Positions 2,168 through 41,961 of a stretch of 41,961 bases of DNA are shown here, in pieces. The translations under genes and the position numbers were made by a program. Location of the stretch: IMG/VR virus record IMGVR_UViG_2695420685_000011; one strand, written 5' to 3'. The notes below the pieces were generated by a model. That model did not search any database and was not told the DNA's origin. It saw nothing but the letters and a program-made list of their open reading frames with translations. Within the stretch, counting starts at the first letter, position 1. Every line of letters begins with the position of its first letter. The DNA comes from a virus (taxonomy: Duplodnaviria > Heunggongvirae > Uroviricota > Caudoviricetes).

Positions 2168-2761
2168 CTAAGCAGCCTTCTTTGATGGTCTTTTTTTCCT
2201 GATCACATTCGCAGGATCATACCCTCCCAGACTTTTCATGACGTCCAAAGGGATCTTGCTTATAGAGTGCCCAGCGTCCTGACAAAACCCTCGAAAAACA
2301 ACGAGCATACTGCCACCGGGGTTGATGTTTACTTCTACCTGACCCAAATTGACGTCAGGCTCGACAAACGCAACGCGGCCACCAGACAGAATAATCGTCT
2401 CATTCGCATACTCTGTTGCACGCTCATACCACTTTGTATCGAGGGATTGAGGAATTAGCATCACTGTTGTAACTCCGCGAGCCTGCTCACGTATAGCCGC
2501 ATCAATCCAGGGGGAGATTTTGGAGTAGGGTGGATTGAGGAAGGCAATTGTACCTGGCTGCCCCCATTCAGATTTCAAAGCATCGCGCTCAACGCCTATG
2601 AAAATAGGCAGCTTTGCATTGTCCTTGTTGCAGGCAACGTCAACATCAAATGTCACTCCAAGATAACGTTGAATGGCAGAAAACAGCCAATCAGGTGTTC
2701 TCCAGAGGTCACGAAGAGAGTTGTCGCGCTTTCGCTGTTTGATTTTTTCGGCTGCAATCAT
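2168..2761 (-). CDS. dam: phage-type DNA N6-adenine methyltransferase (Dam-like)
   Basis: WRTP..LF, FDVDVA and NPPYS motifs characteristic of phage N6-adenine methyltransferases. Confidence 0.85.
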   Translation of the reverse strand: MIAAEKIKQRKRDNSLRDLWRTPDWLFSAIQRYLGVTFDVDVACNKDNAKLPIFIGVERDALKSEWGQPGTIAFLNPPYSKISPWIDAAIREQARGVTTVMLIPQSLDTKWYERATEYANETIILSGGRVAFVEPDVNLGQVEVNINPGGSMLVVFRGFCQDAGHSISKIPLDVMKSLGGYDPANVIRKKRPSKKAA

Positions 2762-4961: not shown

Positions 4962-5606
4962 CTAATGAACGGTCACTCGGCCACAGAACCGGTTTTCTAT
5001 CTTTTCTACAGCGTTATCTAGCATTCTCATCACTGATCTGGCTCTTGCTTCAACCGTGCGATATCGGTTGGAAACGACGAAGGTTTGCAGATCCCCCCTT
5101 TGCGGATGCAGGTGAATTTTTGTCAGTTCCCCGCACATCAACGCATCAATACGAGCGACATACAGACGGTCTAATGATGCTCGTTGTGACCGCAAGTAAT
5201 CTCGCTCTGAGAGAGCGACCCCCGGGCGTAGGCCAGCAATGGCGTTAAAGTTTGAAATAGCAGTTTTGTGGCAAAACTTTTCGATATCGAGGGCTAACTC
5301 AATACATCGATCTTCATTGGTATGGCCGACCAAATCCAACGTGTAGGCCATAACATCAGCAGGTGTGCGATCGATAACAAAGCCTTCAACACCACGCGTA
5401 AGTAGCTCTATATGCTTTGCTATTTCCATTTGAATCTGAAGCCGCTCATATAGAGGCATAGACTCACCTACTCGAACACCGAGTCGGCTCATCAAACTTC
5501 CGACACCAGCATCCACGTAAGGGATTCCGTAATGTTTGTCGATATATTTTGCCAGGGTTGTTTTCCCACTGCCCTGAGCACCAGTGATCCCAATCCGGTA
5601 ATCCAT
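4962..5606 (-). CDS. P-loop nucleoside/nucleotide kinase (possible dNMP kinase)
   Basis: N-terminal Walker A IGITGAQGSGKTT; start overlaps the DHFR stop (TAATG); sits in the nucleotide-metabolism operon. Confidence 0.6.
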   Translation of the reverse strand: MDYRIGITGAQGSGKTTLAKYIDKHYGIPYVDAGVGSLMSRLGVRVGESMPLYERLQIQMEIAKHIELLTRGVEGFVIDRTPADVMAYTLDLVGHTNEDRCIELALDIEKFCHKTAISNFNAIAGLRPGVALSERDYLRSQRASLDRLYVARIDALMCGELTKIHLHPQRGDLQTFVVSNRYRTVEARARSVMRMLDNAVEKIENRFCGRVTVH

Positions 5607-6082
5607 TACGACCTTCTGTATACGATCTGCGAAAAGCCAGGCTCTTCCTCGCTGGCTCGTTGGGTAAAAACTGTTTCAACAGGCACAAAGCCTAAATTAC
5701 GCATCATGCTTGCCGGGAAGAATGCATCGGCGTTTGGCACATCAACGCCGATGTGGGAGAGCCAAATCTCTTCAACATGCGGCATGAATAGCGAGTAAAT
5801 TTGTTCCCCGCCAATCACCCACACAGGCTCTGGTAATCGCAACACATCATCCACACCAGCAGGGTAGAATCCATTTGGTACAAAGCCATGAGAGCGCGTC
5901 AAAACGAGGTTATGACGCTCTGGAAGAGGGCGTTTGAGACTTTCCATCGTTTTACGCCCCATAACGACAGTGGCTTTTTTGGTGAGTCTCTTAAATAGCT
6001 TCAGATCGGTAGAACAACGCCAGGGCAGTTCGTTCGCTATGCCGATCTCATAGTTACGGCCAACAGCAGCTATCATCTTCAT
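5606..6082 (-). CDS. folA: dihydrofolate reductase
   Basis: MIAAVGRNYEIG..LPW N-terminus, VVMGRKT and VIGGEQIY motifs typical of DHFR. Confidence 0.9.
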   Translation of the reverse strand: MKMIAAVGRNYEIGIANELPWRCSTDLKLFKRLTKKATVVMGRKTMESLKRPLPERHNLVLTRSHGFVPNGFYPAGVDDVLRLPEPVWVIGGEQIYSLFMPHVEEIWLSHIGVDVPNADAFFPASMMRNLGFVPVETVFTQRASEEEPGFSQIVYRRS

Positions 6083-17150: not shown

Positions 17151-17795
17151 TTACAGCGCGTCAGTGGGCTTTTTACGCGCTGCGTTTATGCTTATGACGC
17201 CAGCTTTTGGACGTGGGTCAACAAGGTTAAGCTCTTCTTCACTGTGGTATTCGAGGTCGAACTCACGTTTTACATGTCTGATGTAGATTGCGGTGAGCTG
17301 GCTATCTTTGGTCAGGAAGTGTCCGTAGGATTTACGGATCACTTCTTCTACCTTTTCGAGTTTCTCACCACCCATACAGAGATGATTAAACCGGCTGTGT
17401 TTACGCAACATTTCGTCTACTGGACCTGAGTAAATTTTGTCTACTTTCCCAAAACGGATGATTTTCCCTGTGTCTGCGGATACAAGGCAAATCAGCTTGT
17501 CTGGTGATAAACGATCTCGCCACGTCACACCTGAACGGAGTGTGTTGAAGTAGGGGGCATCCAATCCGATGATCGGTTTACGAAATGCGAGCAATGGAAC
17601 GTACCTGATGCAACTGTTTAAATGAAAATTCACACCAGCCTTATCAAGTTTAATTCTGGTTTCGTAGATCGGGCACTTCGCCGCTATACCGCAGATGTCA
17701 CAAAGCAACTTCTGCTTATTCAGGTTGGAATTTGATTCGATAGTGTAGGAGCCGTCTTCAAGACGACGAACCCAGCGCGGGCGTTTTAGATCCAT
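17151..17795 (-). CDS. hypothetical protein (Cys-containing)
   Basis: ORF from track; CDICG..KCP cysteine pair near the N-terminus; function unknown. Confidence 0.55.
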   Translation of the reverse strand: MDLKRPRWVRRLEDGSYTIESNSNLNKQKLLCDICGIAAKCPIYETRIKLDKAGVNFHLNSCIRYVPLLAFRKPIIGLDAPYFNTLRSGVTWRDRLSPDKLICLVSADTGKIIRFGKVDKIYSGPVDEMLRKHSRFNHLCMGGEKLEKVEEVIRKSYGHFLTKDSQLTAIYIRHVKREFDLEYHSEEELNLVDPRPKAGVISINAARKKPTDAL

Positions 17796-17881
17796 ATGTC
17801 ATTTTTCTGTGATTGTTAGCCGAGGCAACGATAACCCACTAGGTGCGCCGAAGGTAGTAAATGCCTGTTTTAATTATTCAC

Positions 17882-17890
17882 ATATCCACA
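17882..17890. promoter_or_regulatory. DnaA-box-like sequence ATATCCACA
   Basis: 8 of 9 match to TTATCCACA, directly upstream of the GATC cluster and iterons. Confidence 0.4.
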
Positions 17891-17895
17891 GGATA

Positions 17896-17954
17896 GATCC
17901 TAATAAAGAGATCCATAGATAGATCCTTGTATAGATCAAATAAGATCCCCGATC
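17896..17954. other. origin-associated cluster of six GATC sites
   Basis: GATC at 17896, 17910, 17922, 17934, 17944 and 17951 within AGATCC-type short repeats. Confidence 0.6.
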
Positions 17955-17994
17955 GCTGTAAGCCGCGCCACGACTGGTCTGAAGCCATGTTCAT

Positions 17995-18096
17995 GTATGC
18001 TGCCAGCGGTAATTGATAGTCTGTCAACGGTTCGCCGTATGCTGCCAACTGTTTTTGGTATGCTGCCAGCGGCAAATCAAGTATGCTGTCAGCGGT
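17995..18096 (+). repeat. iteron array upstream of rep (4 copies)
   Basis: 16-bp direct repeats at 17995, 18037 (degenerate), 18058 and 18081; consensus RTATGCTRYSAGCGGT. Confidence 0.8.
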
Positions 18097-18116
18097 TGAA
18101 TGACAAAGGTGTCCAC

Positions 18117-19211
18117 ATGTCCACAAAAAATAAAAAAGGTAAAAATAACAAAGAAGTAGAAGATAATCTCGACAACTTTGAAGAAGGTTCCCTTGAATTG
18201 TACACAGGGGAACTTGTCCCTAATAGCAACAATACAGTCCAACCAATTGCGTTGATGCGGCTGGGGTTGTTCGTGCCCACGCTCAAGGGGACAAAATACA
18301 GCAAGCGTAACAAGCCAAATGAGATCGATGCTTCAAAGGAGCTTGTTCAGCTCGAAGTAGCCCGTTCTGAAGGCTATTCCGATATCAAGATAACCGGTCC
18401 TCGTCTCGACATGGATCATGATTTCAAAACGTGGGTGGGCGTTGTGCGTTCGCTGGCAGAATACGGCGAACCTAACGGTCGTGTCGAGTTAAGCATCACG
18501 AAATTTGCGAAGTTTTGTGGCTATCCATCGTCACAGATCCGCAAAACACTCCGCGACCGGCTTACAAACAGTCTTTTGAAGATCATGCGTACAACTCTGT
18601 CTTTCCAGAGAACGTATGAAGAAAAGAACGTCGACGGCTCTAACAAGATCTCGCTTCTGATGGTGCACCTCATCAATAGCGTGGACTACAACGAGCAGAA
18701 AGATACGGTGGTGTTCTATGCAGAACCGAAGCTGGCCGAACTATATCGCTTTGACCATAAGGTTCTTTTGCAGTTAAAGGTTATCAATAAGCTACCACGC
18801 AAAGAAACAGCACAGGCTCTGTACACCTTCATCGAAAGTCTTCCAACCAAGCCTGCGCCGGTATCGCTTGCTCGATTGCGTGCGCGACTCAATTTGAGTA
18901 GCAGGAATGTCAGCTCGCAGAATCAGACTATACGTAACGGCTTAAAAGCTCTCCAAGATTTGGGCTATCTCGAATACAGCGAGATTAAGCGTGGGCGGTC
19001 GATCTATATCCAGATTCACAGCCGCAATCCAAAACTCAAAGTCGCACCGCCAAAACCTGAAGACATCGAACCCAAAAAACCAGATGAGAAAGCTGGGGAA
19101 ATTGATGCCAAACAGAACATTATCAACAAGATAACCGAACTTTCGCAGAATTTGACGCCTGAAAATATCAAGATGATTGAGATCCTTTCCAATAGTCTCA
19201 AACTGCTTTGA
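18117..19211 (+). CDS. repA: iteron-binding replication initiator (RepA-like)
   Basis: Flanked on both sides by direct-repeat iterons; N-terminal NSNNTVQP..ALMRLG stretch matches my recollection of P1/RepFIB RepA. Start set to the ATG at 18117 with AAAGGTG SD; the track ORF start at 17997 lies inside the iterons. Confidence 0.7.
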   Translation: MSTKNKKGKNNKEVEDNLDNFEEGSLELYTGELVPNSNNTVQPIALMRLGLFVPTLKGTKYSKRNKPNEIDASKELVQLEVARSEGYSDIKITGPRLDMDHDFKTWVGVVRSLAEYGEPNGRVELSITKFAKFCGYPSSQIRKTLRDRLTNSLLKIMRTTLSFQRTYEEKNVDGSNKISLLMVHLINSVDYNEQKDTVVFYAEPKLAELYRFDHKVLLQLKVINKLPRKETAQALYTFIESLPTKPAPVSLARLRARLNLSSRNVSSQNQTIRNGLKALQDLGYLEYSEIKRGRSIYIQIHSRNPKLKVAPPKPEDIEPKKPDEKAGEIDAKQNIINKITELSQNLTPENIKMIEILSNSLKLL

Positions 19212-19328
19212 TATGCTGTCAGCGGTGAAATGTATGCTATCAGCGGCTATTTTTCTGAAAAGTATGCTGTGAACGGTTAAAGATATGCTACCAGCGGTAT
19301 AGTGAGATGAACGTATGCTGTGAGCGGT
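19211..19328 (+). repeat. iteron array downstream of rep (5 copies)
   Basis: 16-bp repeats at 19211, 19232, 19262, 19283 and 19313, spaced 21 or 30 bp apart. Confidence 0.8.
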
Positions 19329-19488
19329 AAATCATCTATCACCACTCAATGCTCTGTCATACCTCCCCAGTGGTTACTAACCTCGAAGAGTGCATTCCAT
19401 ATAGGTTTGCGCTCACTAACATTCTATTGCTATTGCGCTGATTGCTTGTAGTGAAAGGCATTTATTGCCTGCTACTCCCTGATAGAAC

Positions 19489-19743
19489 GTATGCTGTCAG
19501 CGGTGTTTTATTGAGGAATTTTTGTTTGGATATGCTATCAGCGGTAATTAATGGCATATGTCAGACATTCGTATGCTGCCAGCGGTAATTTTGTTCTGGT
19601 TATACCCATACCGGTACACATTATTCATGCAATGTCTTAAGTATGCTGCCAGCGGTAAAAAATCGAGTAAAGTATGCTGTGAGCGGTGAGATAGACTCTC
19701 GATATGCTATCAGCGGTAGTTGATTGTGTATGCTGTCAGCGGT
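19489..19743 (+). repeat. second downstream iteron array (7 copies)
   Basis: 16-bp repeats at 19489, 19530, 19571, 19641, 19672, 19702 and 19728, all in the same orientation. Confidence 0.8.
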
Positions 19744-19790
19744 GACGACTATGAAATATGACTGCGGAACGTGCCGCAGTCAGTTTGCAT

Positions 19791-20003
19791 TTAGTGTATT
19801 TTCTTTAACAGACCCCAAAGTGTTCCGGCTTTTGTAGTCAGTTTTCCTGTTTCTGGATCGTACATACGCCATTCACGCCGCTGGTGGACGATATACCCAT
19901 CTTCACGTTCCAGACGCTCAAGAATGCCAGGTTGCTTGAAACCCTTAGCACGCCAGTAGCCGCTTGTTTTCTCGATTTCCAGACCTGCCAGTGTTAATGC
20001 CAT
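19791..20003 (-). CDS. hypothetical protein
   Basis: ORF with GGAGG SD; start overlaps the stop of the upstream gene (TAATG). Confidence 0.5.
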   Translation of the reverse strand: MALTLAGLEIEKTSGYWRAKGFKQPGILERLEREDGYIVHQRREWRMYDPETGKLTTKAGTLWGLLKKIH

Positions 20004-22528: not shown

Positions 22529-23602
22529 TTACTCTTCTACTGACTCGGTGGGGTTGTCTTTTGCTCTTCGGTCGTCGATTGCCTGCAAAGCCGCAATGAT
22601 TTCAGCCAGTGGCTTCTCCCGATACATCTCGACGATCTGCGATTTGGTGTATTTCTTGTCACCAATTTCAACTCGCCCGCTGGCGTTCTTTGGCAGGTAT
22701 CCTTCTTCCAGCATGTACTCGACGAGCGATTCGATAACGTCGAGGCCACGAGTAGGATCGAAGTAGAATTTCCAGGTGCATTTGCCATACGGTGGTGCAA
22801 CTTTGTTTTTGATGCATTCTGCGCCTACGTCTTGGCCGATCTTCTCTTTACCATCCTTCATCACCGATGCACCAAGACGGATACGTACAGAAGCGTAGAA
22901 CTTCGGTGAATCTCCACCTGGCGACGTAGTAGGGTCGCCAAACATTACACCGATTTTTGTGCGAACCTGATTCAAGAAGATGATGCAGGCGTTGTATTTG
23001 CGTGCCCACAAAGCCAGAGTAGGGAAGTTCGCACTTGTCGCACGAGCCAGTGCCGTATTGTCGTTCATGTTTAGCTGATCTTTGTCTTTGGCAGTGCCTT
23101 CAGCCATCTTTTCGAACTTCTCGGCTTTGGAGTTCGGAACCATAGACGCAAGTGAGTCAGCCACGATACAGATAGGTGCTGATTCAGGGATAAGCTCTTC
23201 ATCACGTACCAATTTAAGTATTGTGCCGATCAACTCTACAGAGTCTTCGAAGGTGTCAGGCTGCTTGTATACCCACTGACCGTCATCCTCATCTGCGTTC
23301 AGGCCATTGGCTACAGCCAGGCCAACGTCAAAACTGTTTTCATGATCGAGGAATACCGCCAGACCATCTTGTTTTTGAGCGGAGATCATCGCTGCTGTTG
23401 CAAGGAACGTTTTCCCTGCACTTGGAGGACCGAATACTTCGACGATACGACCACATGGGAAGCCGCCATCGTAACGACCAGAAATAGCTTTGTTTAACGG
23501 TGGAAAGCCTGTATCAATCCAATGAGTTACTTTCTGAATTTCGTCGTTGCTACCGATTTTCTTTTTCAGAGCAAGTGCCAGTGCGGATTTTCCTTTTGCC
23601 AT
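22529..23602 (-). CDS. RecA-like recombinase (RecA/UvsX/Sak4 superfamily)
   Basis: Walker A GPPSAGKT, RecA-like core and Walker B-like IVADSLASM; AAAGGAGC SD. Confidence 0.85.
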   Translation of the reverse strand: MAKGKSALALALKKKIGSNDEIQKVTHWIDTGFPPLNKAISGRYDGGFPCGRIVEVFGPPSAGKTFLATAAMISAQKQDGLAVFLDHENSFDVGLAVANGLNADEDDGQWVYKQPDTFEDSVELIGTILKLVRDEELIPESAPICIVADSLASMVPNSKAEKFEKMAEGTAKDKDQLNMNDNTALARATSANFPTLALWARKYNACIIFLNQVRTKIGVMFGDPTTSPGGDSPKFYASVRIRLGASVMKDGKEKIGQDVGAECIKNKVAPPYGKCTWKFYFDPTRGLDVIESLVEYMLEEGYLPKNASGRVEIGDKKYTKSQIVEMYREKPLAEIIAALQAIDDRRAKDNPTESVEE

Positions 23603-26453: not shown

Positions 26454-26596
26454 ATTGATATGCTCAAACTTACTTTCGTGTATCTGATTATATCAAACAA
26501 ATAGAGCTTTACTGTCATGATTGGCGGTAGACAGTATCGGCGCTAAGGTGCAGAATCAGGAGGCACACCGAGCAAAGCAAATTGAGAATAAAACCA

Positions 26597-27580
26597 ATGG
26601 ATAAGGCTAACAAACAAGTCAAAGCAACAAAGTCAGTGCCGACTAAAAAAACAGCCCTCCCCCCAAAAGCTAAGTCTGTAAAGCCAGCGGCAGAAAAGAA
26701 TAAAACTGAAGGTATGACATATCCGAAAACCAGTGCGGATGGACACGCTGGAGAGTACTTGTTTGCCTATTGGATTTCTCGTTATTTCAGATGGCCTTGT
26801 CGATTGCTAGATATTGATATGGGATTGGATGCTCAGGTTGAAATATATGAAAATAATCTTTCGACAGGTTTTTTTATCGGCGTTCAGATAAAAACCACCT
26901 CACGCAAAATGAAGAGAAGGTTAAGCGTACAAATACCTTATAAAAATATAACCTATTGGGGAAGTTGTGATTTTCCTGTGGTAATTGTTTTGATATGCCT
27001 ACACGATGATAATGAATTAGACGAACCTGCTATTTATTGGAAGCATTTAGATAAAAAAACAATTTCTAAAATAAAGGATAAAGCATTAAGAAGTGACTCT
27101 GGATGTGCTCCTGTAACTTTCAATAAGGATGATTATCTGTCTGAATGGGCAGACAAACAAAAGTGGGTCGACATGTGGCTTACAGAAGAAGATAAAGAGA
27201 TAATTGAGCTTGCAAAGCGAGTAAACAAGACGTTGCTAGAGATAGGTGTTCCTCTTGATAAATTCGGAGACGAGTATGACCGCAGCACCTACCTGTGTAG
27301 CCCTGAGCGGGTAGTACCAGACTTGAACTCTATGATGAATGAATATGAAAAAATAAATAACCATATACGTGTAAAGCGTCGATTAGTAGAATTCGATCCT
27401 GTAGTGTCGATTTGTTCACAAAATTATGAAAAGTATCTACCTAAAATCCTTGAATATTTTGAAGATGTGGTCGCACGTAGTGTCGGTTCATACTCGATTG
27501 CAGAACATTTCGAACCATACAGTGATCGTAATCATATTCTGAATCGAATAATTATAGAGAAAGCCCCTAATTCAAGATAG
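26597..27580 (+). CDS. nuclease-fold protein with lysine-rich N-terminal tail (DUF4365-like; unverified)
   Basis: K/P/A-rich tail, then GHAGEYLFAYW..DIDMGLD..VEIY..GVQIKT resembling restriction-endonuclease-like D..E.K signatures; AT-rich; opposite strand to neighbours; terminator downstream. Confidence 0.6.
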   Translation: MDKANKQVKATKSVPTKKTALPPKAKSVKPAAEKNKTEGMTYPKTSADGHAGEYLFAYWISRYFRWPCRLLDIDMGLDAQVEIYENNLSTGFFIGVQIKTTSRKMKRRLSVQIPYKNITYWGSCDFPVVIVLICLHDDNELDEPAIYWKHLDKKTISKIKDKALRSDSGCAPVTFNKDDYLSEWADKQKWVDMWLTEEDKEIIELAKRVNKTLLEIGVPLDKFGDEYDRSTYLCSPERVVPDLNSMMNEYEKINNHIRVKRRLVEFDPVVSICSQNYEKYLPKILEYFEDVVARSVGSYSIAEHFEPYSDRNHILNRIIIEKAPNSR

Positions 27581-27586
27581 TCAAAT

Positions 27587-27615
27587 GAAAAGCTCGTCAA
27601 TTGACGAGCTTTTCA
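27587..27615. terminator. bidirectional terminator between the plus-strand insert gene and dnaE
   Basis: Perfect 10-bp stem AGCTCGTCAA/TTGACGAGCT flanked by A and T runs. Confidence 0.65.
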
Positions 27616-27753
27616 TTAGGCGACTTTCTTACCAAAAATATTGGATAGCGTGACTCTGGTCTGGCGCTTCAGCCTGTACTGTCTCACATCGCCAATCTTG
27701 TTTACTTCCATAAACTCTTTGCTCTTTGGCCACCTTCATGGTGTTCGCTTTGT

Positions 27754-30700
27754 TCATTTGCTAATAGTCTCCGCTACCTCTGCAAGAATTGCTTCCAGCT
27801 TTTCGCCTTCCTCTGGGCGAAAGTACAAAATATTCGGGTTAAATCCGTAGAAAACAGTCACATCCAGCTCCGGCAGATACTCTTTGCGTCCAACCAGGTC
27901 GGATGGTTTGCTCTTGTTGTTGAAGAGCGATGTCGCCCGGCTGCCACACGTCAGCACATAGGTTGGACGCACCAGATTGATCTCTTCACGCATAAAGTCG
28001 GTGAACTGGCCGATCTCGTCTTTGGTGTAGTCTTTTTCTTTGTCTTTAACCTTCTTGCAAACGCCTGTGACATAGAGATCGCCCATGCGTAAATCTCCAG
28101 CCGTCAATAGCTTGGCCTTAAAATCGTCGTATCCGTTCTCCATAAAGTAACCGGTTCGAGCATCATTGCCGTTCGCATTGTCCAGAATGATCATGATTTT
28201 CGGCTTAATACCAATGCTGGGGCGGATTAGTTCATCACCTAAGCCCATTTCAGCCGCCATCCGTGTCATGAGCACGTTAATCTCAGCCGAACGTTTGGGG
28301 TTCATCTCAAACGGACGTGAGGCTTTAACTGCGTCTATGACAAGGTTTCCCATCAATTCAGCCTGGTCGCGTAGGCGCTCTGGATCAGTTGCTGGCAGAC
28401 TACCTGGCTCGATGGATGCAAACGCCCCTACTTTTTGCAGCGATTCGCGCACTCGACTATTACAGGCACGTTTCTCGACAGCTTCTTCGAATTGCGCCAG
28501 TGACTCGAATTTGCCGCCAACTTTTTCTCGCGCTCTCATGATGGCTTGGCAGCCATTCTCAGAACACCCCTTCACAGCAGAGAAGGGCGCATACAGCACC
28601 TGGCTGCCATCTTCAAGCGTGCGGATCTCGATTCGGTTGGATGACACGTTAACGTCTGGTGGCAATACGCGAATACCATAGGTCAGCGCATCTTTAACCA
28701 GCCCCTGGTGTTTATCTTCGCCAAGAATAGTGAGAGCAGCAGCGAAAAACTCTGCGGGATAATGAGTTTTCAACCACATAGATTGATAACTGATCAAGGA
28801 GTAAGCAACAGAGTGTGATTTGTTGAACTGGTAGGCACCATTTTTTTCGAATGCGGTCCAGATCTCCTTCGCTTTCATCTCTGATAGCCCTGGGTGTGAC
28901 GCTGTCACGCGTACTGCGTTTATAGGTAGTTTTGCGCCGTGTTCAAGCGCCTCTTCGACAGTTTTCAGTGTTCCGTCTTCGCATTTAAAATGTTCCGCAC
29001 GGTGAATGCGCTGTGTAGTGCCATCTTCCAGCTCAACGTCTATCCAGCCAGCTTGAGCCTGAACGATGAACTTCTCACCCATGCTCTTCATTTTCTCCAT
29101 GTCTTTTTTGCCGATCGCTTTACGAACGCCGTCAGCTTCAGCCATTGTGAAGCCCGCAAGCAATCGAGTCGCGTTCATCGTCTGTTCCTGATAAAGAATC
29201 ACGCCATTTGTTTCTGCGGTAAGTTCATCAAGAACGGGGTGTAATGATTCCGGCGTCATAAAGCCTTTGGCGACAGAAACATAATCATCCAACATGCCTG
29301 ACTGAATTGGCCCCGGCCGGAAGAGCGCAGTCGTAGCAACGACCGTTTTAAAGCTCATTGGCTCAATTCCACCACCTAAATCTTTAAGCAGCTTGCGCAT
29401 TGGGCCTGATTCAAGCTGGAAAACACCTTGAGTGTACCCAGCAGCAAAACCATCCAGCACCTTGCGATCTTCAAGAGAAATGGCATCAAGATTGATATCC
29501 TCACCTGTGTTCTCTTTAATGTAGCGTTTTGCACTATCGAGCAAATCGAGAGTCGCCAGGCCAAGTACGTCCAGCTTAATTAGGCCCATAGCCTCGCAGT
29601 AACGCTTGTCAAATGCGATACAACGCGCGTCACCACGTCGTTCAACCGGTGTTCGTTCTGTCAGAGGAACACCTGCTACGATCATCCCTGCCGCATGTCT
29701 ACCATAGCCACGCATAAGGCTTTGTAACTTGCAGGCTGCATTGAATGCATCAGGATATTTTGTCGCGTATTTGTCGAGGCTTACCAGTTGTTCGCGCAGC
29801 TCTTCCAATGGAAGGCTATCATCCTCGACGTTCTTCAGTTCTTTTGATACCGCCATATCTGCGGACTCCACACCATAAATACGAGCGGTGTCACGTAGTG
29901 CAGAGGCCGCGCCCAGGTAGGTGAAGTTCGGAATGCCTGCAACGTAATCTTCGCCGTAGCGTTCATTCAGATACTCGATCACCTCATGGCGACGTGCCTG
30001 GCTGAAGTCCAAGTCCGCATCTGGCAAGTCGAGACGCTCAGGGTTGATGAAACGTTCAAACAGAAGACCGTGACGGATAGGGTCGACGTTGGTTATGCCT
30101 ATGCACCATGCCACCAAAGAGCCAGCGGAGGAACCACGACCAGGCCCGACAGGAATGCCAGTTTCACGGCTGTGATTCATCAGATCGCGTACCATCAGGA
30201 AGTAACCACAAAATCCCAGGCGAGTAAGCGTGTCCATTTCGTACTTAAGTCGCTCAACATAAACCCTGTTCTCAGAAGCCGGTGGTGTGTAGCCAAACTC
30301 TTTTGTGGTAAGACGTTTACGCAGCCCAGCAACGGCCAGTTTCATCAGCGTTGCAGGCTCGTCGTCTGCCATCTTTGGCAGTGCTGGTGGCAATTCATGC
30401 CAGCGCCATGTGCAGGCATCGATAATGGTATCCTGCGTTGTTGAGGCCATTGCAGCTGTTACCGGCACATCCATGCGAACGGAGAAGGCTTTCAGCGCCT
30501 CAAGGAGATGGCGGCGACCATTGACGGCGTTATCTCGCTGGTGGGGGATACGCAGACGATGCGGCTGGTCGATTTTGATGTTGTTCGTAACCATGTGCGC
30601 AATGTCTTTAATGTCTGCATCGTCGATCGATTCGTAATAAGCGGGATAGAACGCTACTGGCTCTATTTTCAGTGCGCTGGCGACTTTCATCGCCCGGACG

Positions 30701-37067: not shown

Positions 37068-37149
37068 ATTTAGACGTTGTTTTTTGAATTTTAAGGGAAA
37101 CAGGAGTGAGTTTGGTGGGAATAAAAACGGCTCCTGTGAGCCGTTTAAA

Positions 37150-37395
37150 TCAGAGGGTGCTGACGTATGCAGCCAGTTCTGTGTATCCGCCAATCGGTTG
37201 GCCATCGATCAGTACCTGGGGGATAGTCTCTACCGGTTTACCAACAATTTCACTAAGTTTTTCCTTGTCGATACCGGCAGTGGTGATGTCGATGTACTCA
37301 TAATCACCGTAGCCATGTCCCTTTAGTTGCTTCGCCAGCTCGACCGCACGTTTGCAGTATGAGCAGTTATCTCGTCCGTAGATAGTGATCGTCAT
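37150..37395 (-). CDS. glutaredoxin (NrdC/NrdH-like redoxin)
   Basis: MTITIYGRDNCSYCK active-site CxxC and glutaredoxin-like C-terminus; start set to the ATG at 37395 with GAGGT SD. Confidence 0.8.
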   Translation of the reverse strand: MTITIYGRDNCSYCKRAVELAKQLKGHGYGDYEYIDITTAGIDKEKLSEIVGKPVETIPQVLIDGQPIGGYTELAAYVSTL

Positions 37396-37569
37396 TGTTA
37401 CCTCATAGAATTGATATGCAACTTTACTTACAAAGAAGATAGGTATGTGCATACTTATCATTGCAGTCTGCATTATAAAGCTATTAAAGCCTCGATCAAT
37501 CTATTAATTAAGGCATTGTTTGGTTAACATTACCCTAATATTTTATAGTTAGTAGAGTGAAATACATAC

Positions 37570-38832
37570 ATGCCTTTTTTAATTTTCATTATTATACTAC
37601 TGCTCACCGTGATTTTTTGGGATTGGGTTGTTTTAAATGGTCAAATTGTTGGAACATTGGCTACAGCATTTGCTTTTATAGCAACAGCATGGAATGCCTA
37701 CGAAGCGAGAAAAAGTGCAAAAGCAGCTTTTTCAGCCCTTCAATTAACAACAGAATCATTGTTCGAAATGCGAAAGAGTGCATTTAAACAATGGTTTGAT
37801 TCCTTATTAAATCAACATGATGAGCTATGTCTTCTTGCAAAACAAATTATCGATAAACGCAAAGTTAATTTAAACAGCGATGAGTTACATAGACTATATT
37901 ACCCATTGGTAAAACAGCATGAGGTAATACAGTATGTGAAGCATATTATTAATATTTTTGAGTATGTGGATAGTTCATTTTATATTGATGGGGAATGTCT
38001 AAAGGAAAAAAGAGCGTATGTGTCACAATTAATTTTCAAAATCCCACCTCAGATGAAGTTGATCATTGCTATCTTTGGATTAAAAATCGATTATTGTGAA
38101 CATATTAATTCGGGAAAACTGTGTTGTTTATTGAATAAATATGATTTTTTCAATGATGAAATATTTTTTGATGATGCTTATTCAGATATGCCTTATCTGG
38201 ATGCATTCATAAACCTTAGATTCAACAAAATATTCAAATCTCGAATGATAAATTATTTTGATAATATCATTAAAAGTTATTATGTTCCATCGGACGTTAA
38301 AAGGGACTGGATGTTTCGAAACCCAAAGCTCGTGCCGTCGGTTCTTATGAATTATAAAACTCCTTGTTCTCCTATAATTAATGATTACTTTGAGAAGTTG
38401 CCTTTACATGTAAGAAACTACTTTGAGGAACTACTTAAAACCGCGAATGATAGAGTTACTCATTTTGACGTTTACATCCCACGCCTTATTGGTTGTTCAA
38501 TCGTGCAACATTACGAAGATGTGCCTTCCGAAAAAAACAGGTTAAATGACAGGAATGATGTAATAGCTATGGCTGAAGATTACATCGAGAAAAGAAAATA
38601 TAATCAACTGGATTACATACTTGAAGATATATACTTCAAGAGTGACGAAGATATAATCCCTGGCCACCATTTGATTGTGGCATTTGATGACTATGAATTT
38701 AAATTATCACTCATTAAGATAAATGAGAATAAAGATAGCGATAATCTTTTAAATCGAATTTATACTGAATCCAGTAGCATGGTTAAAGAATATAAGCGCG
38801 AAATATTAAAACTGGGCGACTATGTAAAGTAA
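37570..38832 (+). CDS. membrane-anchored hypothetical protein
   Basis: 420 aa; two N-terminal hydrophobic helices; very AT-rich and N/K/Y/F/I-rich; plus strand; terminator directly downstream. Confidence 0.6.
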   Translation: MPFLIFIIILLLTVIFWDWVVLNGQIVGTLATAFAFIATAWNAYEARKSAKAAFSALQLTTESLFEMRKSAFKQWFDSLLNQHDELCLLAKQIIDKRKVNLNSDELHRLYYPLVKQHEVIQYVKHIINIFEYVDSSFYIDGECLKEKRAYVSQLIFKIPPQMKLIIAIFGLKIDYCEHINSGKLCCLLNKYDFFNDEIFFDDAYSDMPYLDAFINLRFNKIFKSRMINYFDNIIKSYYVPSDVKRDWMFRNPKLVPSVLMNYKTPCSPIINDYFEKLPLHVRNYFEELLKTANDRVTHFDVYIPRLIGCSIVQHYEDVPSEKNRLNDRNDVIAMAEDYIEKRKYNQLDYILEDIYFKSDEDIIPGHHLIVAFDDYEFKLSLIKINENKDSDNLLNRIYTESSSMVKEYKREILKLGDYVK

Positions 38833-38844
38833 ATTGCACTGTTC

Positions 38845-38878
38845 AACAAAAAAGGGGCCGAAGCCCCTTTGAATTTTG
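38845..38878 (+). terminator. rho-independent terminator after the 420-aa gene
   Basis: Stem GGGGCC/GGCCCC region (AAAGGGGCCGAAGCCCCTTT) followed by a T-run. Confidence 0.7.
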
Positions 38879-38944
38879 CGCTGAAAAAAGTGTTGCTAGG
38901 ATGTTAGCAAGCTATGGTTAAGAACGTCTGCCGTAATTATCTAT

Positions 38945-39022
38945 CACAGCGTTGAGCGGTCTGGTTTATGTTAGCGGAGTCTTAATCGAGTTGATTAAAA
39001 GGCCAAACCGCTCAACGCTGTG
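38945..39022 (-). other. long hairpin (16-bp perfect stem) at the 3' end of the tRNA cluster
   Basis: CACAGCGTTGAGCGGT at 38945-38960 pairs with ACCGCTCAACGCTGTG at 39007-39022; possible processing or termination structure. Confidence 0.5.
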
Positions 39023-39024
39023 TC

Positions 39025-39111
39025 TGGCGGAGAGTAATGGAATCGAACCATCATCGTTTGCACAATGGGACGGTTTTCAAGACCGCTTGAGCACCATGCT
39101 CCCTACTCTCC
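39025..39111 (-). tRNA. tRNA-Ser (anticodon UGA), long variable arm
   Basis: Manual fold: acceptor GGAGAGT/ACTCTCC, anticodon loop CTTGAAA, T-loop GGTTCGATTCC, CCA end. Confidence 0.8.
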
Positions 39112-39431
39112 AGCTATTGTGATGGTCGGTGCTGAACTCCGACACAGGGTTGTAGCAAGCCCCGCAAAGCGCGCACTACTGTAGTTGCGGCACATCAGCC
39201 TGTGCATTCATCACAATGGTAAGATCACTACCTTTCGACCAGTCATTGTGCACATGAACGACGATTAACCGTAATGATATTATCGTTGTGTTGTGAAGCC
39301 AGATGCTTATCTTCTGGTTGCTTCAAAGAGCTGCACTTCCTCACAACGGTAAGAGCACTGGTCTGACTCTATCGATTTACGGCCTTGTGGGTCAGTATCG
39401 CCGATTCGCCCAATGCTCTTACCTGTTGTGT

Positions 39432-39507
39432 TGGTGCCGGTTAACGGACTTGAACCGCTGGCCATTCGCTTACAAAACGACTGCTCTACCAACTGAGCTA
39501 AACCGGC
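39432..39507 (-). tRNA. tRNA-Thr (anticodon UGU, tentative)
   Basis: Manual fold: acceptor GCCGGTT/AACCGGC, D-arm GCTCAGTTGGTAGAGC, anticodon loop TTTGTAA, T-loop TTCAAGT, CCA end; one mismatch in the anticodon stem. Confidence 0.65.
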
Positions 39508-39511
39508 AATT

Positions 39512-39598
39512 TGGTGGGGAGTGATGGAGTCGAACCACCCGAGTCGCCATGACAGTAGATTTACAGTCTACACCGCTACCTCTACGGACTAACTCCCC
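39512..39598 (-). tRNA. tRNA-Tyr (anticodon GUA), long variable arm
   Basis: Manual fold: acceptor GGGGAGT/ACTCCCC, anticodon stem-loop GTAGA-CTGTAAA-TCTAC, T-loop GGTTCGACTCC, CCA end. Confidence 0.8.
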
Positions 39599-39603
39599 TA
39601 AAT

Positions 39604-39678
39604 TGGCGATGGTGGGTGGATTCGAACCACCGACCAGTTGGTTAACAGCCAACTGCTCTACCGCTGAGCTACACCATC
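39604..39678 (-). tRNA. tRNA-Asn (anticodon GUU)
   Basis: Manual fold: acceptor GATGGTG/CACCATC, anticodon stem-loop GTTGG-CTGTTAA-CCAAC, T-loop GGTTCGAATCC, CCA end. Confidence 0.85.
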
Positions 39679-40456
39679 AATTCAGCACTGCCAGTATTTA
39701 TTACTCAACAGTGCCAATCGCGACGGTTTAGTTTCTGCCAGGAAACGCACCGCTACTTGCACTTTTCGTTAGTGCCAGACGCTTTCGACTTCGCTCAATA
39801 GTAGAAGGCAAAATCTTTAAGTAGATGATGTTTCTGAGGACAGCACCTACTTTGTAATTTATACAATGTGATGTATGGAATCATTTGTTGTGAAAACAGG
39901 CACCAATGGCAACAGTGGTTAAACCTACACAACAATCCCGTCTTCACAACGTTGAGGCCACTACTCCGATTGAATGTTTGCCCAACATGTTACATATCAA
40001 CGCTCGCCGGTATCTCTGTGAATAGAACCTTAGAATTGATAAAAATGTAATGGCCTCAACGTTGTGTGCTGGCTAACCATACCAGCCGGGCTACGTCGCC
40101 GCTTTTTAACCCAGTATAAACGACATAATTGAACAAAATGACGTAACAGGATGGGCGGTCAGTGGCTAAGAATCCGGGAGTCATATGGAGTTGAAAATAT
40201 ACCAACCGCCCATTCTGTTACTTCATCGGAGGGAACATGAATGTTCCCTCCTGCGTTCTGCAATCACACTCGCTCAGTGTGTCCCATTTCGGTAACGAGG
40301 CTGGAAACTGACCTCGCTGGTGTTTGGCTTATTAGGCTACTGCCAGATAGACTTCTTCGTTTGCACTTGTATTTAAGTTCAAACAGTCGCGTCTCAACGA
40401 AAACAAAGTCATCTTATACACAAAAGATAAGTAAGTAAATACTTATCATTGTATTT

Positions 40457-40747
40457 TTATTCGGTTGTGACTTTTTTGATCAAGGCCACTCTACGACTAG
40501 GTGTTCTTGTGATGGTGGCAGTGAATCGTTTCGCCTGGATAGTAATGGTTTCGTTCTCCTTAAGTTGCCCGTAGCGAGTTTCCACCAGGGTGCCAAGACG
40601 CCACAGACCATCATCGATACGTTTATGACTAGCAAATTTAATCAGCAACAGTTTTACGACTAACTGACCTACGTAAAAGGCGAATGCGACTCCGGCCGCT
40701 AAGAAATAGGTGGCCAACCACCATTCCCAAGAAGTTAGCTTGCTCAT
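40457..40747 (-). CDS. membrane-anchored hypothetical protein
   Basis: N-terminal TM helix WWLATYFLAAGVAFAFYVG; AAAGGTGAAAAA leader; start overlaps the upstream small ORF stop. Confidence 0.6.
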   Translation of the reverse strand: MSKLTSWEWWLATYFLAAGVAFAFYVGQLVVKLLLIKFASHKRIDDGLWRLGTLVETRYGQLKENETITIQAKRFTATITRTPSRRVALIKKVTTE

Positions 40748-40896
40748 TTTTTCACCTTTGTTTCATGAACTACCCGATACACGCGCTTTCCTATGCACAG
40801 TGTTTTGGTTTTAAGTTCCTGCTTAATCAAATCACGACAGATGCCGAAGCCGATAAGGAAGCCACCCATAAAAGCTAATGAGATGTATGGAATCAT
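40744..40896 (-). CDS. small membrane protein (50 aa; not in ORF track)
   Basis: My own translation: MIPYISLAFMGGFLIGFGICRDL...; AGGAG SD 8 nt upstream; start overlaps the upstream stop (TAATG) and stop overlaps the downstream start (ATGA). Confidence 0.4.
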   Translation of the reverse strand: MIPYISLAFMGGFLIGFGICRDLIKQELKTKTLCIGKRVYRVVHETKVKK

Positions 40897-41108
40897 TATA
40901 ACACTCCTGATTCTACTAATTGCTGTAGCAATACTTTCCCTTTATCAGTTAACTGGTAGTTGGCCGAACACTTCGTTTCAGAAACGTTTGCAACCAACCC
41001 TAACCGCTCTAACTTAGCCCGCGTTTTAGGCTTCCAGTACTCAGGGAACTCTGACCACTTACTGATTTCATGAAGTGTTTCCTTCTCCCGTTTACTTAAT
41101 ACGATCAT
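40896..41108 (-). CDS. hypothetical protein
   Basis: ORF with GAAGGAGAT SD; 70 aa. Confidence 0.55.
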   Translation of the reverse strand: MIVLSKREKETLHEISKWSEFPEYWKPKTRAKLERLGLVANVSETKCSANYQLTDKGKVLLQQLVESGVL

Positions 41109-41267
41109 CCTTAATCTCCTTCACGGTGTTGGTTATTTCTACAATGCGATAAATACGACCGCGTCTTTCTATAACACCGCTTTTAATGTAGTCATTGATG
41201 CAACTGGACATCACCACAATACCGATGAAAAAACCAACTGCTAAAAATGCAATCATCCAGCCGAGCA

Positions 41268-41271
<4 letters not shown>
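41092..41271 (-). CDS. small membrane protein (59 aa; not in ORF track)
   Basis: My own translation: MMLGWMIAFLAVGFFIGIVVMSSC...; start overlaps the ligase-like ORF stop (ATGA). Confidence 0.35.
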
Positions 41272-41958
<687 letters not shown>

Positions 41959-41961
41959 TAG

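Follow-up and report, generated by a model that had tools for sequence, protein, structure and literature searches.

A probable P1- and RepFIB-like iteron replicon on a phage-plasmid of the SSU5 supercommunity

The replicon of P1 (IncY) is annotated, in order, with a DnaA site, Dam sites, five incC repeats with the repA promoter lying within them, and repA, with incA located at the repA stop codon. The nine control iterons of P1 comprise three direct and six inverted copies, and the parA-parB-parS locus adjoins incA downstream. Classical RepFIB replicons, such as those of IncF plasmids and Klebsiella IncFIB plasmids, share with the locus described below a DnaA box and five to six GATC sites upstream of rep, but have different iterons and reside on conjugative or mobilisable plasmids without phage genes.

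The SSU5 supercommunity is typed as IncFIB and its members are regarded as phage-plasmids (PMC7969092, PMC11652158), of which the SSU5-like Cyrano has a copy number of ~5.5 per cell and produces virions (PMC9928086). The pSLy3 group of this supercommunity contains the p09EL50/pECOH89 type, called IncFIB(H89-PhagePlasmid) by PlasmidFinder. The RepA of pECOH89 is 100% identical to that of p09EL50 and 48% identical to that of pLF82 (PMC3999498). The published announcements of elements of this type do not describe the iterons or the anatomy of the origin, and no relevant report was found in the literature on autonomous replication of the replicon, on binding of Rep to the iterons, on incompatibility or on the iterons themselves.

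The window analysed here is a stretch of 41,961 nucleotides from a Caudoviricetes virus (IMG/VR record IMGVR_UViG_2695420685_000011). With a probability of about 0.9, positions 17874-19782 represent the plasmid-prophage replicon of an SSU5-supercommunity phage-plasmid ('pSLy3'/p09EL50/pECOH89 type), homologous to both P1 oriR-repA-incA and RepFIB. The assignment is based on homology of both Rep and the origin DNA, on iterons that are conserved and co-vary with Rep, on the purifying selection to which Rep is subject and on a strictly extrachromosomal state. The replicon belongs to a known ~110-kb E. coli phage-plasmid family related to Salmonella phage SSU5. A sequence-only reading had proposed a P1/RepFIB-like replicon on a phage-plasmid and, as the family and its IncFIB-type RepA had already been catalogued, the result mainly confirms that the raw sequence was read correctly; the phage-plasmid conclusion itself was known (PMC3999498, PMC7969092, PMC11652158). 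The additions are modest and consist of a map that places the origin, base by base, against P1 oriR, the variation in the control iterons and a conserved ACTAAC module. Two annotation errors were also found, an over-extended Rep start in RefSeq and the labelling of iterons as attL/attR in pJN2-26.

The origin and the beginning of rep contain the following features:

17874 to 17890, plus strand: two tandem DnaA boxes, TTATTCACA and ATATCCACA, with an overlap of 1 bp, marking the left edge of the origin
17892 to 17954, plus strand: AT-rich region with six GATC sites in (T)AGATCC heptamer-like repeats, recognised by cluster density and alignment with P1
17951 to 17994, plus strand: GC-rich spacer (GATCGCTGTAAGCCGCGCCACGACTGG..., 57% GC) leading from the GATC region to the iterons
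17995 to 18096, plus strand: five origin iterons (incC equivalent) starting at 17995, 18016 (degenerate), 18037, 18058 and 18081, spaced 21/21/21/23 bp
18055 to 18084, plus strand: candidate rep promoter, inferred only, TTGGTA, 18 nt, AAGTAT, within iterons 3-5
18105 to 18109, plus strand: ribosome-binding site of rep, AAAGG, read from the sequence
18109 to 18125, plus strand: two weak DnaA-box-like repeats, GTGTCCACA and ATGTCCACA, over the rep start codon, read from the sequence
18117 to 19211, plus strand: rep, encoding a 364-aa iteron-binding initiator of the P1 RepA/RepFIB family, identified by Pfam, PHROG and homology

The DnaA boxes, GATC heptamers, GC-rich spacer, five iterons, rep gene and control array running from the stop codon stand in the same order as in P1. 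The first DnaA box (17874-17882) has no mismatch to TTWTNCACA and the second (17882-17890) has one, and in the alignment the pair coincides with the DnaA-binding site annotated in P1 oriR (K02380, 729-746). Only the second had been reported beforehand; it is real, but its tandem partner was missed. The six GATC sites, which had been placed at 17896-17954, form the densest cluster of the window (P ~6e-4 for random placement of its 188 GATC sites), lie in a region of 34% GC and match the annotated Dam sites of P1 oriR base for base in the alignment. The cluster is presumed to be a Dam-methylated, SeqA-sensitive unwinding region. The spacer that follows is nearly identical to its P1 counterpart, GATCGTTGCAGGCCGCGCCACGTCTGG.

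Taken as a whole, the left half of the origin, from the DnaA boxes through the GATC region to the spacer, has 74% nucleotide identity with P1 oriR against no more than 56% for shuffled controls, whereas the iteron half, at 55%, is at the level of chance (shuffled controls up to 54.5%). Such a pattern is expected if the sites for host factors are shared and the Rep-iteron specificity has diverged. The P1 iteron ATGTGTGCTGGAGGGAA is not found here and the two iteron sequences are unrelated, so a different specificity and incompatibility group are expected. The weak repeats over the rep start codon also have positional counterparts, with GTATCCACA (one mismatch) at their place in a Klebsiella relative and CTATCCACA between incC and repA in P1.

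The iteron motif TATGCTRYSAGCGGT has 16 matches at two or fewer mismatches, all on the plus strand, where 0.41 would be expected by chance, and none of 100 shuffled sequences reached this number. The consensus at the locus is GTATGCTGTCAGCGGT. Four origin iterons had been recognised at first, and all four stand, but the true number is five, as a degenerate copy with three mismatches (TAGTCTGTCAACGGT, 18016-18031) restores the regular spacing and brings the total at the locus to 17. Klebsiella and Cronobacter relatives have a clean iteron at the position of this copy. The block of five and its spacing, which in the incC region of P1 is 21/21/21/22, are invariant across five genera. The repeats on either side of rep have been annotated differently in Klebsiella phage pJN2-26, whose record labels 20-bp direct repeats flanking the gene attR and attL, as though they were the ends of an integrated element. 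The pJN2-26 20-mers are, however, two of the 13 iteron copies in that phage, rep has no integrase next to it and no copy of the element lies in a chromosome, which leaves attachment sites as an explanation of the repeats hardly credible; the label looks like an artefact of an automatic prophage tool.

The rep open reading frame was confirmed with the length that had been given for it. The protein matches Pfam PF01051 (Rep3_N, WH1) with 37.5 bits against a cut-off of 22.4 (E = 3.9e-9) and PHROG 775 with E = 4.6e-133. It is homologous to both groups of initiators with which comparison had been suggested, having 43.5% identity to P1 RepA over 76% of the protein (tblastn, E = 2e-64) and ~50% identity to classical IncFIB initiators, which occur in thousands of plasmids and are the closest Rep proteins outside the phage-plasmids. 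Both the classical IncFIB Rep and SSU5 RepA are closer to it than P1 RepA. A match of the N-terminal NSNNTVQP..ALMRLG stretch to P1 RepA had been suggested and is correct, as the stretch is invariant in both proteins; within the alignment of Rep proteins it extends to NSNNTVQPxALMRLGxFVP, and further conserved blocks are visible. In comparison with P1 RepA, the protein has ~30 extra N-terminal and ~55 extra C-terminal residues, the latter forming an extension at ~310-364. An NCBIfam search with Rep gave no match. As for a two-domain WH1-WH2 fold like that of RepE, pi or pPS10 RepA, no relative of solved structure was found in the PDB by phmmer or with a five-sequence profile, and an AF2 model from single-sequence input was unusable (pLDDT 39).

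RefSeq has a product of 404 aa whose start, the ATG at 17997, falls within iteron 1. The start of the 364-aa product is preferable because it aligns with the starts of P1 and SSU5 RepA, has its AAAGG 7 nt upstream and is annotated in this way in the PhiR41_1 and E. albertii records; the RefSeq start is over-extended. The weak TTGGTA-18-AAGTAT site lies no more than 2-3 bp off the columns that align with the annotated -35 and -10 hexamers of P1 repA, which are also separated by an 18-nt spacer. A scan for consensus promoters detected no plus-strand rep promoter within the iterons, so that the argument for autoregulation is one of positional homology. Inside rep there is an inverted copy, 19 nt long, of spacer plus iteron (18029-18047 and 18454-18472, 18/19 complementary), which was rejected as a conserved feature; complementarity falls to 12/19 in Klebsiella, 10/19 in Cronobacter and 8/19 in Salmonella, while the peptide LAEYGEP is kept.

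Downstream of rep the locus continues with a second array of the same iterons, an incA-type control region that is interrupted by a different conserved element:

19211 to 19328, plus strand: control-iteron block 1 (incA-like), five direct iterons spaced 21/30/21/30 bp, from motif matches
19365 to 19420, plus strand: conserved non-coding module (CCCCAGTGGTTACTAACC...GGTTTGCGCTCACTAAC) in which two YYACTAAC motifs lie at a distance of exactly 39 bp, recognised by conservation in relatives
19489 to 19743, plus strand: control-iteron block 2, seven direct iterons spaced 41/41/70/31/30/26 bp, from motif matches

The twelve downstream iterons of uniform orientation that had been described are thus all present, as five and seven. 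The first starts on the last base of the rep stop codon, as does incA in P1. The description of the iterons as helically phased applies to the origin block (resultant R = 0.89) and to the first downstream block (R = 0.79) but not to the second (R = 0.14). Likewise, the comparison of the overall layout with that of P1 is supported in gene order and homology, with differences in the control iterons and in par. All control iterons are direct, both here and in the relatives, where they number 8-13, with no inverted iteron among 66 loci, and the looping geometry may therefore differ from that of P1 incA. Moreover, par is not adjacent to rep but ~30 kb away in the complete relatives.

The array at 19211-19743 might instead be a partition centromere, or another protein-binding array with no part in Rep-based copy control. 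It is long, lies outside the minimal origin, houses a conserved module that is not an iteron and has a second block out of helical phase, all of which would suit such a role. Its repeats nevertheless share their 15-16-mer with the origin iterons, they start, like those of P1 incA, right at the stop codon of rep, and their sequence changes together with that of the origin iterons between lineages. Centromeres normally adjoin their own par genes, and the ParA locus of the complete relatives is distant. Either alternative is very improbable, and a control array of the incA type is the preferred reading.

It is in block 2 that the iteron number of this array varies among relatives. Within the near-identical group formed by the p09EL50/pECOH89 type and PhiR41_1 there are 9, 12 or 13 control iterons. 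PhiR41_1 has nine, as an 87-bp deletion whose two endpoints fall within iterons has removed three from block 2; an additional block 2 copy in plasmid p4_0.2 brings the number there to 13. The natural variation of 8-13 predicts differences in copy number.

Refutation of the replicon had been tied to the repeats being absent or different in close relatives. Instead, iteron sequence, orientation and origin spacing are kept in the E. coli, E. albertii, Klebsiella, Salmonella and Cronobacter relatives, where the spacers diverge. The iteron sequence follows the Rep lineage, being the same where Rep is 85-93% identical and unrelated in SSU5 and P1. SSU5, pHCM2 and Cyrano (pLF82) have the same synteny, made up of SbcCD-like genes, a 214-aa ORF, the origin, rep, small ORFs and a RecA-like gene, and their RepA, which is 47.9% identical to Rep here, also has the C-terminal extension. 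In contrast, their iterons (TAWCCACTGTAGAGAG) are unrelated, their control iterons are of mixed orientation and upstream of repA there are two copies of the DnaA/GATC/iteron origin module.

The ACTAAC module of ~60 bp was found in all 66 related replicons from viral contigs. It is also present in the SSU5, pHCM2 and Cyrano group on the opposite strand, and is inverted in 23/23 SSU5-type replicons. As a general RepFIB feature it was rejected, since neither P1 nor any of three classical IncFIB plasmids has it; it is specific to the lineage and the one mildly novel item of the locus. Two possible functions were also discarded. RNAalifold on both strands gave a weak, imperfect hairpin with one compensatory pair, and Rfam gave nothing for 17750-19850 other than a chance mir-2 match (E = 1). 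A small ORF across the module is interrupted by stops in several relatives and lacks a shared start codon, and variability shows no bias by codon phase (13/20, 11/20 and 11/21). A promoter-like site on the minus strand of the control region (19360-19331) was likewise rejected, as it is not conserved in relatives.

It is possible, though doubtful, that the two AGTGGTYACTAAC-like copies 39 bp apart form a second, SSU5-lineage-specific cis-regulatory class, bound by Rep or by a phage-encoded factor and modulating copy control. The module could be a partial-iteron site for Rep, as CAGTGGTTA resembles the 3' half of the iteron, CAGCGGTAA, and the end of the SSU5-type iteron. The Dam-dependent iteron origin of Vibrio cholerae chromosome 2 has such a second regulatory class, with inhibitory 39-mers in addition to the 12-mers of RctB (PMC6090056). 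This is an analogy only, as RctB is an unrelated initiator and the binding of Rep to the ACTAAC module is hypothetical. If true, the module could tie copy control to the lysis-lysogeny state, loosely like the RctB 39-mers.

The locus is 99–100% identical at the nucleotide level in ~120 E. coli and Shigella plasmids of the p09EL50/pECOH89 type, and three phage records are also near-identical. Identity is 99.0% for p09EL50 (NC_018651), 100% for pRM13322 and 98.6% for PhiR41_1, which was deposited as a phage with MG1655 as its host. These elements have the same replicon with the same flanking genes, and differ by micro-variation only, in iteron number and a few iteron point differences. The replicon occurs in 120 of 5,426 complete E. 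coli genomes, at 185 places that are all on plasmid records with none in a chromosome. It probably maintains a phage-plasmid family that ~2% of complete E. coli genomes carry, with O104:H4 and Shigella isolates among the hosts, and since some members carry blaCTX-M-15, its copy-number control and incompatibility bear on the spread of resistance by phage-plasmids.

No virion or par genes lie in the 42-kb window, which corresponds to coordinates 1-15.5 kb and 86.5-108 kb of PhiR41_1 only. The phage-plasmid status therefore rests on the near-identical complete relatives, among which PhiR41_1 carries the tail genes L, K, I, J and Stf together with ParA, all outside the part that is represented here. 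The search for parAB and virion genes that had been recommended accordingly succeeds in the complete relatives and not in the window itself. With the extrachromosomal state in E. coli, this makes the phage-plasmid reading essentially right. Unlike the myovirus P1, the complete element has the virion type of a siphovirus, with lambda-like tail genes (PMC11652158). Virion production by the element itself is suggested indirectly, by the deposition of PhiR41_1 as a phage and by the virions of Cyrano. Derivatives of 62-76 kb with the same replicon have lost the virion module; the 62-kb derivatives of E. albertii have lost it entirely and have kept rep, the iterons and ParA.

The element also has DnaE, primase and helicase-like genes of its own, a point against the main reading. 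Such an unusually complete replisome set would allow the Rep/iteron module to be an inactive relic, with the phage-type genes maintaining the element from another origin, and as far as could be found the literature holds no experiment on the origin. Against this, Rep has a dN/dS of 0.02-0.03 across genera with synonymous sites saturated and is under strong purifying selection, the five origin iterons, DnaA boxes and GATC cluster are conserved where the spacers have diverged, and the reduced 62-kb derivatives retain the module. The homologous P1 and RepFIB modules are proven replicons (K02380 annotation for P1). A relic is most unlikely, and the module is better regarded as a working replicon.

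By analogy with P1 and other iteron plasmids (PMC6090056), from which all steps of the mechanism are drawn, the replicon would support autonomous replication dependent on Rep, DnaA, Dam, DnaK and DnaJ, under control by titration and handcuffing. Rep monomers would bind the five 21-bp-phased origin iterons and host DnaA the tandem boxes at the left edge, whereupon the two proteins would open the adjacent AT-rich GATC-heptamer region and allow the host helicase and replisome to be loaded. Re-initiation would be gated by the Dam methylation state of the GATC region, probably as read by SeqA. Iteron-bound Rep probably represses its own promoter, and the 12 downstream iterons are predicted to titrate Rep and to pair with the origin iterons ('handcuffing'), keeping copy number low. 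The number of control iterons, 8-13 among the relatives, may tune the set point.

On the 3' side of the control array are small convergent ORFs and a RecA-like gene. Two further features complete the locus and its surroundings:

19759 to 19782, no strand assigned: GC-rich hairpin TGACTGCGGAACGTGCCGCAGTCA, an inverted repeat
2168 to 2761, minus strand: gene for a Dam-family N6-adenine methyltransferase (Pfam Dam PF05869, E = 1.5e-37)

The hairpin is probably a bidirectional terminator between the replicon and the convergent gene at 19791-20003. The Dam-family methyltransferase may be an accessory factor acting on the GATC-rich origin, a link that is inferred, and the genes listed for pECOH89 likewise include a dam gene (PMC3999498).

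The replicon at 17874-19782 is already known and belongs to an established phage-plasmid family, with RefSeq entries up to 100% identical. The sequence-only reading had described it as a P1- and RepFIB-like iteron replicon, an observation that is confirmed and an interpretation that is supported, with the DnaA box, the six GATC sites, the rep ORF and every listed iteron lying where that reading had placed them. The four origin iterons that it counted are present, but a fifth, degenerate copy lies among them, at a position where Klebsiella and Cronobacter relatives carry a clean iteron. The twelve downstream iterons, described as sharing one orientation, do so. The features are:

17874-17882, second DnaA box, TTATTCACA, abutting the ATATCCACA box
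17882-17890, DnaA box, ATATCCACA
17896-17954, six GATC sites
17995, 18037, 18058 and 18081, + strand, clean origin iterons 5' of the ORF, matching the TATGCTRYSAGCGGT pattern
18016-18031, degenerate fifth origin iteron, completing a 21/21/21/23-bp spacing series
18117-19211, rep ORF, 364 aa
19211-19328, + strand, first five of the 12 control iterons 3' of the ORF
19365-19420, ACTAAC module of about 60 bp, CCCCAGTGGTTACTAACC...GGTTTGCGCTCACTAAC, between the control blocks, non-coding
19489-19743, + strand, remaining seven control iterons

The pattern TATGCTRYSAGCGGT has 16 matches at two or fewer mismatches, exclusively on the + strand, against an expected 0.41, and none of 100 shuffles reaches 16. 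Nowhere else in the 42-kb window are GATC sites as tightly packed (P ~6e-4 if its 188 GATC sites were placed at random), and the GATC-heptamer region of the origin has a GC content of 34%. Helical phasing, which had been proposed for the iterons, reaches significance among those of the origin (R = 0.89) and of control block 1 (R = 0.79); control block 2 shows no significant phasing (R = 0.14). A 19-nt inverted copy of the spacer and iteron 3 (18029-18047 / 18454-18472, 18/19 complementary), with its second arm within the rep coding sequence, is statistically unusual in the window sequence and is not conserved in the Klebsiella, Cronobacter and Salmonella relatives. A 214-aa ORF (17151-17795, - strand; PHROG 2105, no Pfam match) lies directly beside the origin, as it does in all the relatives compared, those from Klebsiella, Salmonella and Cronobacter and SSU5 among them.

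The proposed P1-like order of origin iterons, rep and control iterons is borne out by alignment of GenBank K02380 (P1) to the window and three relatives. K02380 is annotated with, in this order, a DnaA-binding site, four Dam sites, five incC repeats, repA and, from the stop codon, incA, with the repA -35/-10 hexamers inside the incC repeats. The match to P1 is nearly base for base across the tandem DnaA boxes, (T)AGATCC heptamers and GC-rich spacer (aligned as GATCG.TG.A.GCCGCGCCACG.CTGG). The left half of the origin is 74% identical to P1 oriR (shuffled controls, at most 56%), whereas identity over the iteron half is no better than chance (55%), so that the part read by host factors is conserved and the Rep-iteron recognition pair has diverged. 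A consensus promoter scan found no rep promoter; a weak TTGGTA-18-AAGTAT lies 2-3 bp or less from the columns aligned to the annotated P1 repA hexamers. In three classical IncFIB plasmids, too, the region 5' of rep has a DnaA box and then a cluster of 5-6 GATC sites, and the layout is thus general to the family.

The origin iteron spacing is 21/21/21/22 bp in P1 compared with 21/21/21/23 bp here. Whilst P1 incA contains three direct and six inverted iterons, and the SSU5 control array is of mixed orientation, the window array is entirely direct, which is therefore a feature of its lineage. The four differences from P1, namely control-iteron orientation and number, par location, Rep extensions and an extra module, are variations within a well-understood kind. 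SSU5 (JQ965645.1) carries its origin module of DnaA box, GATC cluster and iterons in two tandem copies upstream of repA (5280-5499 and 5655-5911), about 375 bp apart, unlike the single module of the window's lineage.

The Rep protein contains a Rep_3 WH1 domain (Pfam PF01051, E = 3.9e-9) and matches PHROG 775 (E = 4.6e-133). The anticipated similarity to known initiators was found by tblastn with P1 and P7 RepA (43.5% identity across 76% of the length, E = 2e-64) and with SSU5 and Cyrano RepA (47.9%), and extends to the classical IncFIB Rep of thousands of plasmids (~50%). The N-terminal stretch noted as P1-like, NSNNTVQPxALMRLGxFVP, is invariant between Rep and P1 RepA. Compared with P1 RepA (286 aa), Rep here is longer by about 30 N-terminal and 55 C-terminal residues, the C-terminal tail being shared with SSU5 RepA. 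The rep dN/dS is 0.02-0.03 against Salmonella and Cronobacter orthologues, with synonymous sites near saturation, indicating that the gene is functional. No solved structure was detectable by sequence search, and a single-sequence AlphaFold model was unusable (pLDDT 39). The RefSeq/PGAP version, WP_024180339.1 (NZ_CP050499.1), has 404 aa (17997-19211) and takes as its start an ATG within origin iteron 1, so that its first 40 codons would be iteron-encoded; judged from sequence, this annotation probably begins too far upstream. The start at 18117 (364 aa), preceded by AAAGG 7 nt upstream, aligns with the P1 and SSU5 starts and has been adopted by other depositors.

Relatives from E. coli, E. 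albertii, Klebsiella, Salmonella and Cronobacter, with Rep 85-100% identical, retain an unchanged iteron consensus and the five-iteron origin spacing, and the repeats had been expected to persist in this way. In each of them the control array begins at the rep stop codon and runs in direct orientation throughout, and 66 related loci from viral contigs contain no inverted iteron. Control iterons number 12 in the window, E. albertii and Cronobacter, 13 in plasmid p4_0.2, 11 in Salmonella, 9 in phage PhiR41_1 and 8 in Klebsiella phage pJN2-26, the reduction in PhiR41_1 being an 87-bp deletion with both ends within iterons. The iterons of SSU5 (Rep 48% identical) and P1 (43.5%) are unrelated to those of the window. 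The iteron sequence hence co-varies with Rep, as would be expected of a cognate binding site. The attR/attL labels flanking rep in pJN2-26 (MZ779062.1; 2753-2772 and 4023-4042) are two of its 13 iterons and almost certainly an automatic prophage-tool artefact.

The homology, conservation, iteron-Rep co-variation, purifying selection and extrachromosomal state come from this analysis, and the mechanism is drawn from established knowledge of P1 and iteron-plasmid biology (general concepts, PMC6090056). By this analogy, Rep monomers, probably released from dimers via DnaK/DnaJ, would bind the five phased iterons and DnaA the tandem boxes, the GATC-heptamer region would melt, and its methylation state would limit re-initiation. 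Iteron-bound Rep probably represses its own promoter, and the downstream iterons would titrate Rep and handcuff the origin, giving a low copy number. A Dam-family N6-adenine methyltransferase gene is present at 2168-2761 (- strand; Pfam Dam E = 1.5e-37), and the predicted enzyme might maintain methylation of the origin without help from the host.

The 2-kb replicon region is 99-100% identical in about 120 plasmids of E. coli, Shigella and E. albertii, mostly of ~108-114 kb and including p09EL50 of E. coli O104:H4, and 98.6-99.3% identical to three phage records, among them PhiR41_1 (deposited host MG1655). It occurs in 120 of 5,426 complete E. coli genomes, every time in a plasmid record. pECOH89 was described in 2014 as a phage-like plasmid homologous to p09EL50, pLF82, pHCM2 and SSU5, and its RepA shows 100% identity with p09EL50 RepA and 48% with pLF82 RepA (PMC3999498), the same relationships as measured here. 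Most SSU5-supercommunity phage-plasmids were typed as IncFIB by Pfeifer et al. (PMC7969092), the 110-kb Escherichia/Shigella 'pSLy3' group is entered in a 2024 review (PMC11652158) as siphophage phage-plasmids of the IncFIB type, and 'IncFIB(H89-PhagePlasmid)' is a routine PlasmidFinder call, given in 25 papers. Cyrano, which is SSU5-like, makes virions and is kept at a copy number of ~5.5 per cell (PMC9928086). The literature search found no description of the iterons or origin anatomy of this replicon.

The virion and par genes sought in the complete element are found in PhiR41_1, which encodes lambda-like tail proteins L, K, I, J and Stf and, among other products, primase, DnaE, ribonucleotide reductase and a small ParA, with the ORF of a partner lying downstream of the ParA gene. 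In PhiR41_1 coordinates the window covers 1-15.5 kb and 86.5-108 kb, and so holds replication, recombination and nucleotide-metabolism genes without virion or par genes; the genes flanking the replicon are the same as in SSU5. E. albertii p3RM15116 (CP043239.1, 62,266 bp) and five sibling records, from several wild-bird isolates, are reduced derivatives that have lost the block of nucleotide-metabolism genes and all of the virion block (PhiR41_1 41-73 kb), gained hdeAB, and kept rep, the origin iterons, 12 control iterons, the ParA locus, the DnaE region and toxin-antitoxin genes. Such a series of natural deletions is in keeping with a plasmid maintenance that is independent of the virion genes.

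Window 37071-41961 has no counterpart in PhiR41_1 and includes four tRNA genes (39025-39678, - strand; Ser-TGA, Thr-TGT, Tyr-GTA and Asn-GTT by ARAGORN, three confirmed by Rfam). A 1.3-kb segment with a DUF4365 gene (26454-27761) is also absent from PhiR41_1. The RecA-like gene spans 1,074 nt in the window (22529-23602) versus 2,340 nt in PhiR41_1 (98798-101137), where the 1.27-kb insertion may be an intein or homing element.

The one remaining thread is the ACTAAC module, in which two YYACTAAC motifs are spaced by exactly 39 bp. It is found with identical spacing in 65 of 66 related replicons from viral contigs; in Klebsiella forms it follows the last iteron and both copies read AGTGGTTACTAAC. 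It is also present, on the opposite strand, in 23/23 SSU5-type replicons, whose iterons and spacers are otherwise not alignable with the window's lineage. It is absent from P1 and three classical IncFIB plasmids, and does not recur elsewhere in the fetched loci of these elements. A reading as an ORF was ruled out, and there is essentially no RNA covariation. The CAGTGGTTA within it is similar to the 3' half of the iteron, CAGCGGTAA, and identical to the SSU5-type iteron end on the same strand, a likeness between sequences of two independent lineages that may serve as a lead rather than as evidence. The module is probably a protein-binding site.
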